NCBI RefSeq assembly: GCF_013315695.1
Contig: NZ_CP054353.1
Source of the DNA: Escherichia coli
Lineage (GTDB): Bacteria; Pseudomonadota; Gammaproteobacteria; Enterobacterales; Enterobacteriaceae
DNA length: 64,000 nt
Direction: 5' to 3' (one strand)
Shown: one piece after another, positions 34,283 through 35,067 of the stretch
How positions within the stretch are numbered: the stretch's first letter is position 1
Layout: each line of letters opens with the position of its first letter
Program-made: the position numbers and the translations under genes
Notes under the pieces: generated by a model
Told to the model about the DNA's origin: nothing
What the model saw: only the letters and a program-made list of their open reading frames with translations
The model's database searches: none

Positions 34283-34576
34283 ATGCCAGCAGCCAATAAC
34301 ATTCCAGCCAGGCGCGAATCTTTAAACTTGCGCATAAAACCCGCAGAACGCGATCTTATTGACCGGGCCGCTAAAGCCCGAGGAAAAAATCGCACCGAAT
34401 TTGTCCTTGAGGCCGCCAGAGCCGCAGCTGAAGAGGCGCTCATTGAGCAGAGAATTTTCAGGATCGATTCTGATGATTACCAGCTATTTTTGAATCGTCT
34501 GGATCAGCCCCCCGCGCCCAATGCTGCATTACGCAAAACCATGCAAACACCCGCGCCGTGGGAGCAAAAAAAATGA
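34283..34576 (+). CDS. DUF1778 ribbon-helix-helix antitoxin (TacA/AtaR-like)
   Basis: 97-aa ORF from ATG 34283 with RBS AAGGA 7 nt upstream: [59 protein letters not shown]...; ORF-track start 34238 rejected (lies in promoter, no RBS); stop TGA overlaps toxin ATG. Confidence 0.8.
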
Positions 34577-35067
34577 TTCAGGCCCCCGAGCCACTCATGG
34601 CAAGGCATCAATTCACCTCTTTTTGCTCGGGAGTAGAAACGATGGATAACTGGCTAAAGCAGAGAGCCCTAAAAAATCAGCTTGCCGGCGCATCACGTAC
34701 ATTTGTTAGCTGTGATACGTATAGCAACGTTTTGGCATATTATTCGCTTGCTTCCAGCGCCGTTGAAACGTATGTCGCGACAGGACGATTTCGCCGAAAT
34801 ATGCCAGAACCGATCCCTGTTGTAGTACTTGGTCGTCTGGCAATAGATAAATCATTACAGGGTCAGGGCATCGGTCGTGCGATGGTCAGAGATGCCGGTC
34901 TACGAGTACTACAGGCGGCTGAAGTCATTGGTATTCGCGGAATGTTGGTCCATGCGTTATCAGACCAGGCCCGTGAGTTTTATCTGCGAGTGGGGTTTGA
35001 ACCATCGCCTGTCGATTCTATGATACTGATGGCAACATTGGCTGATTTGCAGGAATGTCTTAAATAG
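34573..35067 (+). CDS. GNAT-family acetyltransferase toxin (TacT/AtaT/ItaT-like)
   Basis: 164-aa ORF from ATG 34573 ([17 protein letters not shown]...); acetyl-CoA motif in ...[23 protein letters not shown]..., conserved Tyr in EFYLRVGF; ATGA overlap with upstream antitoxin. Confidence 0.85.

Follow-up and report, generated by a model that had tools for sequence, protein, structure and literature searches.

A probable chromosomal TacAT2-type toxin-antitoxin operon at the rne-flgL junction of Escherichia coli

Results

Genes and control elements at the locus

Within the 64,000-nucleotide stretch of Escherichia coli chromosome that we analyzed (from contig NZ_CP054353.1; hereafter, the window), two short genes lie side by side between rne and flgL (Table 1). 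The upstream gene runs from an ATG to a TGA codon and encodes 97 residues, the downstream gene runs from an ATG to a TAG codon and encodes 164 residues, both on the + strand, and the stop codon of the first overlaps the start codon of the second in the tetranucleotide ATGA (34573-34576). A preliminary description of this DNA, made from its letters and a list of its open reading frames, had placed both reading frames here with the ATGA overlap, and both are confirmed on the sequence; the peptides that it quoted, including EFYLRVGF, are all found in the two translations.

Table 1. Features of the rne-flgL junction, in positions of the window.
Feature	Position	Strand	Basis
Accessory segment, 881 bp, in place of the 63-bp K-12 spacer	34202..35082	.	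blastn against K-12
Imperfect inverted repeat GTAATGACATTAGCGTTAC, putative TacA operator	34219..34237	+	near-invariant in seven loci; overlaps the -35
Sigma-70-type promoter, ATGACA-18 nt-TATAAT	34222..34251	+	consensus scan, 11/12 positions; hexamers in conserved block
Shine-Dalgarno sequence of the antitoxin gene, AAGGA	34271..34275	+	read from sequence; GGAGGA or AAGGA conserved here in homologs
Antitoxin gene, TacA/DUF1778	34283..34576	+	PF08681, E 1.5e-26; 81% to 7AK7 chain C; WP_001110446.1
Shine-Dalgarno sequence of the toxin gene, within the antitoxin gene, GGGAG	34560..34564	+	read from sequence; GGGA conserved in homologs
Toxin gene, GNAT, TacT2 subfamily (by alignment)	34573..35067	+	PF13508, PF13673, PF00583; 73% to 7AK7 chain A; WP_000613626.1
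FlgO sRNA equivalent, flgL 3' UTR, outside the module	35085..35162	-	K-12 b4826 mapped via alignment

A mechanical list of open reading frames gives longer forms of both proteins, one of 112 aa that begins at ATG 34238 and one of 169 aa that begins at GTG 34558. By comparison with related sequences the shorter starts, 34283 and 34573, are the correct ones, because the RefSeq calls on the identical locus agree with them, as do the N-termini of crystallized homologs, because each is preceded by its Shine-Dalgarno sequence, and because the MPAAN start is kept in six other species; ATG 34238, moreover, falls within the promoter. The public gene calls of 82, 112, 141 and 169 aa are start-codon choices and not alleles. 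The toxin gene has an in-frame internal ATG at Met24 (34642-34644), with GGGAG upstream of it at 34630-34634, which accounts for the 141-aa calls in public databases (P0004, P0035).

The junction of the two genes carries a run of eight A residues (34566-34573), which reads A_AAA_AAA in the antitoxin frame just 5' of the stop codon. The protein collection also contains two TacA-TacT fusions of 260 aa (P0031, P0033), each from one Logan contig. Could the run promote frameshifting or transcriptional slippage? We rejected this because the run is missing from all six homologous loci and the fusions are single-contig occurrences; a homopolymer error is the more likely source of the 260-aa proteins.

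The inverted repeat that overlaps the -35 hexamer has the form GTAATG-N7-CGTTAC, with a perfect palindrome, TAATGACATTA (34220-34230), as its inner part, and by analogy with KacA, AtaR and TacA it is a putative operator for the antitoxin. Direct repeats of TGCTGTA at 34215 and 34241 flank the promoter. When the upstream regions of homologous loci were aligned they proved to be conserved from GTAATGACAT through the ATG, a block that covers the inverted repeat, both promoter hexamers and the ribosome-binding site, and to be unrelated farther 5'. The start of this block lies no more than two bases from the end of the K-12 homology, and that coincidence indicates that the transferable unit is the promoter/operator together with the two genes, about 0.85 kb in all. 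An Rfam search over 33900-35400 returned nothing meaningful.

The 3' end of the module lies close to the end of flgL, whose 3' UTR gives rise to the sRNA FlgO (PMC10578931). The toxin stop codon is separated by 18 nt from the 3' terminus of the FlgO equivalent, which is on the opposite strand and has a terminator at 35092-35120 in our terminator scan. The same scan found no terminator on the + strand after the toxin gene, and the predicted fold of the interval 35040-35170 does not stand out from those of shuffled sequence (z = 0.56).

Protein families and nearest structures

The antitoxin matches the Pfam family PF08681 (TacA1, formerly DUF1778) with an E value of 1.5e-26, and the RHH_1 family weakly; its ribbon-helix-helix is N-terminal and its toxin-binding region C-terminal. 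The toxin matches three GNAT families, PF13508, PF13673 and PF00583, with E values of 7e-9 to 7e-6. For both proteins the top solved structure is PDB 7AK7 (E 7.7e-76 for the toxin and 1.4e-45 for the antitoxin), to which both align without gaps, 119 of 162 toxin residues (73%) and 79 of 97 antitoxin residues (81%) being identical. By these alignments the similarity to 7AK7 and to Pfam TacA1 is far beyond chance, and both the Pfam and the PDB matches bear out the proposal, made from the letters, that an RHH/DUF1778 antitoxin is paired here with a GNAT toxin. In RefSeq the antitoxin is already annotated as a "type II toxin-antitoxin system TacA family antitoxin"; in our searches no NCBIfam model named or matched either protein, and PADLOC had no match for the module.

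Residues that matter in the crystallized toxin are retained. LQGQGIGR aligns with LHGQGVAR of 7AK7, the acetyl-CoA-binding motif Q/R-x-x-G-x-G/A, and the toxin has K29, R88 and A90 as well as the catalytic Y137. The last is matched by F137 in the 7AK7 construct and by Tyr at the same position in the native Salmonella enterica protein (P0091, a cluster of 763 member sequences) to which chain A of 7AK7 is nearly identical save for F137; the conserved Tyr singled out in the preliminary description is therefore the counterpart of TacT2 Y137. From F137, K29 and the near-identity to the Salmonella protein we infer that 7AK7 is Salmonella TacT2(Y137F)/TacA2; F137 and K29 agree with the TacT2(Y137F) mutant of Rycroft et al. 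(PMC5959882), and the assignment also draws on Grabe et al. 2021.

Other GNAT toxins of known structure score lower. The toxin reaches 256.7 bits against 7AK7, at most 155 against TacT (5FVJ, 7AK8 and 7F36; E ~1e-44 to 4e-44) and at most 76 against KacT (E ~1e-20 to 4e-20), AtaT (E ~1e-16) and TacT3 (6G96; E 2e-15), and the match to ItaT (7BYY; E 0.78, 13.3 bits) is not significant. Of the earlier suggestion that the toxin resembles TacT, AtaT and ItaT, the likeness to the TacT family stands, with TacT2 as the nearest member, AtaT is a distant relative, and the likeness to ItaT falls away.

Homologous modules in other genomes

Toxin homologs number in the thousands, and those with 70-79% identity are spread across the Enterobacterales, among others in Kluyvera, Leclercia, Salmonella, Klebsiella, Citrobacter, Pectobacterium and Brenneria. 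We compared six homologous loci outside Escherichia with one in a second Escherichia species. In all of them a 97-aa PF08681 gene is followed by a 161-164-aa GNAT gene with a 4-nt overlap, ATGA or GTGA, so the overlap of the translationally coupled type that had been pointed out in E. coli is not only present but kept in the family. The neighbors of the module differ by genus, and the contexts in Salmonella, Klebsiella, Leclercia, Pectobacterium and Citrobacter are unrelated to one another; among the compared loci only that of Escherichia sp. E4385, with 96-97% protein identity, is also positioned between rne and flgL. The modules of Salmonella (L004-L006) and Citrobacter koseri (L013) adjoin genes for Fic, PIN-TPR-GreABC and CdiI-like immunity proteins and phage-type integrases, and such defence/competition-island neighbors are absent beside the E. 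coli copy. Some E. coli have other TacT2-like toxins (P0087, P0106), 73-76% identical to that at rne-flgL.

Accessory status of the rne-flgL junction

A megablast search with the two genes found the pair in 686 of 5,426 complete E. coli genomes (~13%, or about one in eight), in every case as a single chromosomal copy, and 682 of the 686 carriers have it at 99% identity or more. When the query was extended by 330 bp of flank, 5,425 genomes matched, 684 of them across its whole length; in all sampled matches from the rest, only the flanks were found, with a spacing of about 633-635 bp that matches K-12. The sampled genomes with an empty junction include O157:H7 and Nissle, and none of the sampled matches carried any other cargo. 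The site, as far as it was sampled, exists in two states, with the module or with a 63-bp spacer.

Relative to K-12 the window is collinear with 1,112,113-1,175,385 at ~98% identity except at 34202-35082 and 41448-41538. The pair had been described as an accessory module and as the window's sole genes outside the conserved backbone; given its presence in 686 of the genomes and its absence from K-12 the former is upheld, and against K-12 the latter also holds, the other absent stretch being 91 bp of non-coding sequence in the flgF-flgG intergenic region. This second stretch (ccctcaccctaacctctccc...gggcgagag) resembles a boxC-type intergenic repeat and may be one.

The accessory segment sits between the rne terminator (34168-34191) and the FlgO/flgL terminator, and a finer alignment narrows its island-specific part to about 34217-35061. 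The K-12 spacer has in common with the island ends only CATCTTTG at the left edge and AAATAG at the right, strings too short to decide between insertion and deletion. The island edges show none of the marks of a mobile element, whether target-site duplications, terminal inverted repeats, an integrase or IS elements, and the module has no recombinase genes. The E. coli module is a self-contained 0.85-kb unit that moves between genomes without a recombinase of its own.

Carriage on other replicons was considered and rejected: the two matches in the plasmid collection (at least 99% identity) come from entries 0.73 Mb and 4.9 Mb long, which represent chromosomal sequence, and the single match in the phage collection is a 501-kb Salmonella contig. 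Similarly, a partial GNAT gene in strain HS-02 (L003, NZ_CP172818.1, 2470-3010) was discarded as a decay remnant; this pseudogene is preceded by ~550-600 bp of homopolymer-rich noise in a poor assembly, and we regard it as an assembly artifact.

Selection and history

In the comparison with Escherichia sp. E4385 the antitoxin gene has a dN/dS of 0.08 and the toxin gene one of 0.12, and against more distant relatives the ratio is ~0.04-0.08 where dS could be estimated, dS being saturated in the other comparisons. Such low ratios (~0.1) indicate that both genes have been kept functional by purifying selection. The dS of the module relative to the E4385 locus (L007, 4711-5492) is 0.16-0.21, a rough figure as the genes are short, and in the same comparison the flanking genes give 0.34 (rne), 0.59 (flgL) and 0.69 (flgK). 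That the module has a lower dS than its flanks suggests that it is younger than they are and that it has been exchanged between Escherichia lineages via flanking homology and not inherited strictly vertically.

Discussion

Relationship to characterized systems

The closest characterized relative of the E. coli pair is TacA2/TacT2 of Salmonella (7AK7; Rycroft et al., 2018, PMC5959882), whose proteins have 97 and 163 residues compared with 97 and 164 in E. coli. The two systems have in common K29, R88, A90 and Y137 of the toxin, and they agree in the order of the genes, in their 4-nt overlap and in the promoter/inverted-repeat block; the toxins differ (27%) mostly at the N-terminus, in residues 45-70 and at the C-terminus. 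Judged by alignment, the E. coli toxin belongs to the TacT2 subfamily (clade D) and is closer to TacT2 than to other characterized GNAT toxins. The Salmonella allele that matches 7AK7 lies near dsbD, cutA and dcuA, and another lies in an island with AraC, Fic and PIN-TPR genes. The rne-flgL interval is not the site of either Salmonella locus, so the E. coli module is a close homolog, and not a positional ortholog, of Salmonella tacAT2.

Salmonella TacA/TacT and TacT3 have the same family and fold, a DUF1778 antitoxin encoded upstream and aminoacyl-tRNA acetylation in common with the TacT2 group, but in sequence they are clearly more distant from the E. coli pair. The cognate antitoxins of the three Salmonella paralogs do not cross-neutralize, according to the statement cited in PMC9431474. 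AtaR/AtaT and AtaR2/AtaT2 of O157:H7 and KacA/KacT of Klebsiella pneumoniae are likewise GNAT/DUF1778 type II systems with the architecture of the E. coli module; AtaT2 is specific for Gly-tRNAGly, and AtaT and KacT fall in a basal, broad-specificity clade A (PMC9177977). The loci of the O157:H7 systems (ECs4308-4307 for AtaRT and ECs4261-4262 for AtaRT2) differ from that between rne and flgL, and we rejected identity with either of them on these locus tags and on the empty junction of the sampled O157:H7 genomes. ItaR/ItaT of E. coli HS (7BYY) also has a GNAT toxin that acetylates aminoacyl-tRNA, but it is alike at the superfamily level only, and identity with it was rejected on the E value of the structure match. 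We found no experimental study of the exact E. coli pair in a search of the open-access literature.

A TacAT2-type operon and its predicted action

We conclude that the locus is very probably a chromosomal type II GNAT/DUF1778 (TacAT) operon of the TacAT2 subfamily, with a toxin that would acetylate aminoacyl-tRNA. What we observed in its favor are the overlapping genes, a strong sigma-70 promoter within an inverted repeat, the residues on which TacT2 toxicity depends and purifying selection on both genes. By analogy with its relatives, the antitoxin would dimerize via its N-terminal ribbon-helix-helix, bind the inverted repeat over the -35 and repress the operon, while its C-terminal part would bind the toxin and mask the active site. 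Toxin freed of its partner would then use acetyl-CoA to acetylate the alpha-amine of aminoacyl-tRNA, which would become unusable in elongation, so that translation and growth would halt until Pth stripped off the acetyl-amino acid and allowed recovery, as Pth reverses the effect of TacT2-type toxins (PMC5959882, PMC9177977).

Which tRNA would be acetylated? On balance we favor Gly-tRNAGly, because TacT2 and all five of the clade D members tested acetylated it almost exclusively in vivo (PMC9177977). We hold this view with considerably more reserve than the general mechanism; the specificities of GNAT toxins in vitro and in vivo have disagreed (PMC9177977), and with 27% divergence from TacT2 the specificity of the E. 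coli toxin could differ.

Alternative explanations

A type II operon of this kind might nevertheless have lost its force. Genes that are intact could encode a toxin as weak as that of Salmonella Typhimurium, leaving the locus neutral, and there is precedent for this: TacT2 with K29, as in Enteritidis, is the more active form and the E29 form of S. Typhimurium is nearly non-toxic (PMC5959882), so that K29E alone nearly abolishes toxicity and sequence cannot by itself guarantee potency. That most E. coli live without the module would fit with such neutrality. The E. coli toxin, however, has K29 in its active state, together with R88 and Y137. In TacT2, R88 and K29 are basic residues of a surface groove for tRNA binding, Y137F and R88G were compared with the wild type for growth inhibition, and R88G abolished toxicity (PMC5959882). 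The promoter, the putative operator and both ribosome-binding sites are also intact and conserved, and a dN/dS of ~0.1 in both genes argues for ongoing selection on the proteins. We therefore consider attenuation improbable. A more radical proposal is that the GNAT protein is no toxin at all and is instead an ordinary acetyltransferase of small molecules or proteins, with the ribbon-helix-helix protein merely its transcription factor. The GNAT superfamily is very broad and the Pfam GNAT matches are, by themselves, generic, but full-length identity of 73% to a demonstrated aminoacyl-tRNA-acetylating toxin and of 81% for its partner, the membership of that partner in a dedicated antitoxin family, and a gene order and overlap typical of the toxin family make this very improbable indeed.

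A third view accepts the same biochemistry and differs in the role for which the module is selected, which would be phage defence or stabilization of the locus and not stress-induced persistence. The company kept by the Salmonella and Citrobacter homologs, namely Fic, PIN-TPR-GreABC, CdiI-like immunity proteins and integrases, would be in keeping with such a role, as would the homologs found among phage protein families (phrog_1758, E 5e-30; phrog_10531, E 6e-15). The E. coli module, on the other hand, stands alone between housekeeping genes with no defence neighbors, it drew no match in PADLOC, and the sole phage-collection match proved to be part of a Salmonella genome and not a phage. We regard a selected role in defence or stabilization as unlikely.

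Consequences of the location and wider implications

If the locus is a TacAT2-type operon, its location may itself have consequences. The gap of only 18 nt between the toxin stop codon and FlgO, and the lack of a terminator in our scan, imply that transcription of tacAT and that of flgL/FlgO converge and may overlap, and if read-through occurs tacAT transcripts would be antisense to FlgO and flgL. Expression of the module and flagellar regulation could then interfere with one another in the ~13% of E. coli that are carriers; we put the prospect that such interference occurs, or else that the tRNA specificity of the toxin differs from that of TacT2, at no better than slim.

The biochemistry and structures of the TacAT family are well worked out, and the E. 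coli pair leaves the current understanding of the family unchanged. What it would add is one more lineage-restricted GNAT toxin in E. coli, beside AtaT, AtaT2 and ItaT. As a natural variant of TacT2 with ~27% divergence it could help in mapping the determinants of tRNA and antitoxin specificity, and the two-form site between rne and flgL offers a clean case for the spread of a module that has no recombinase.
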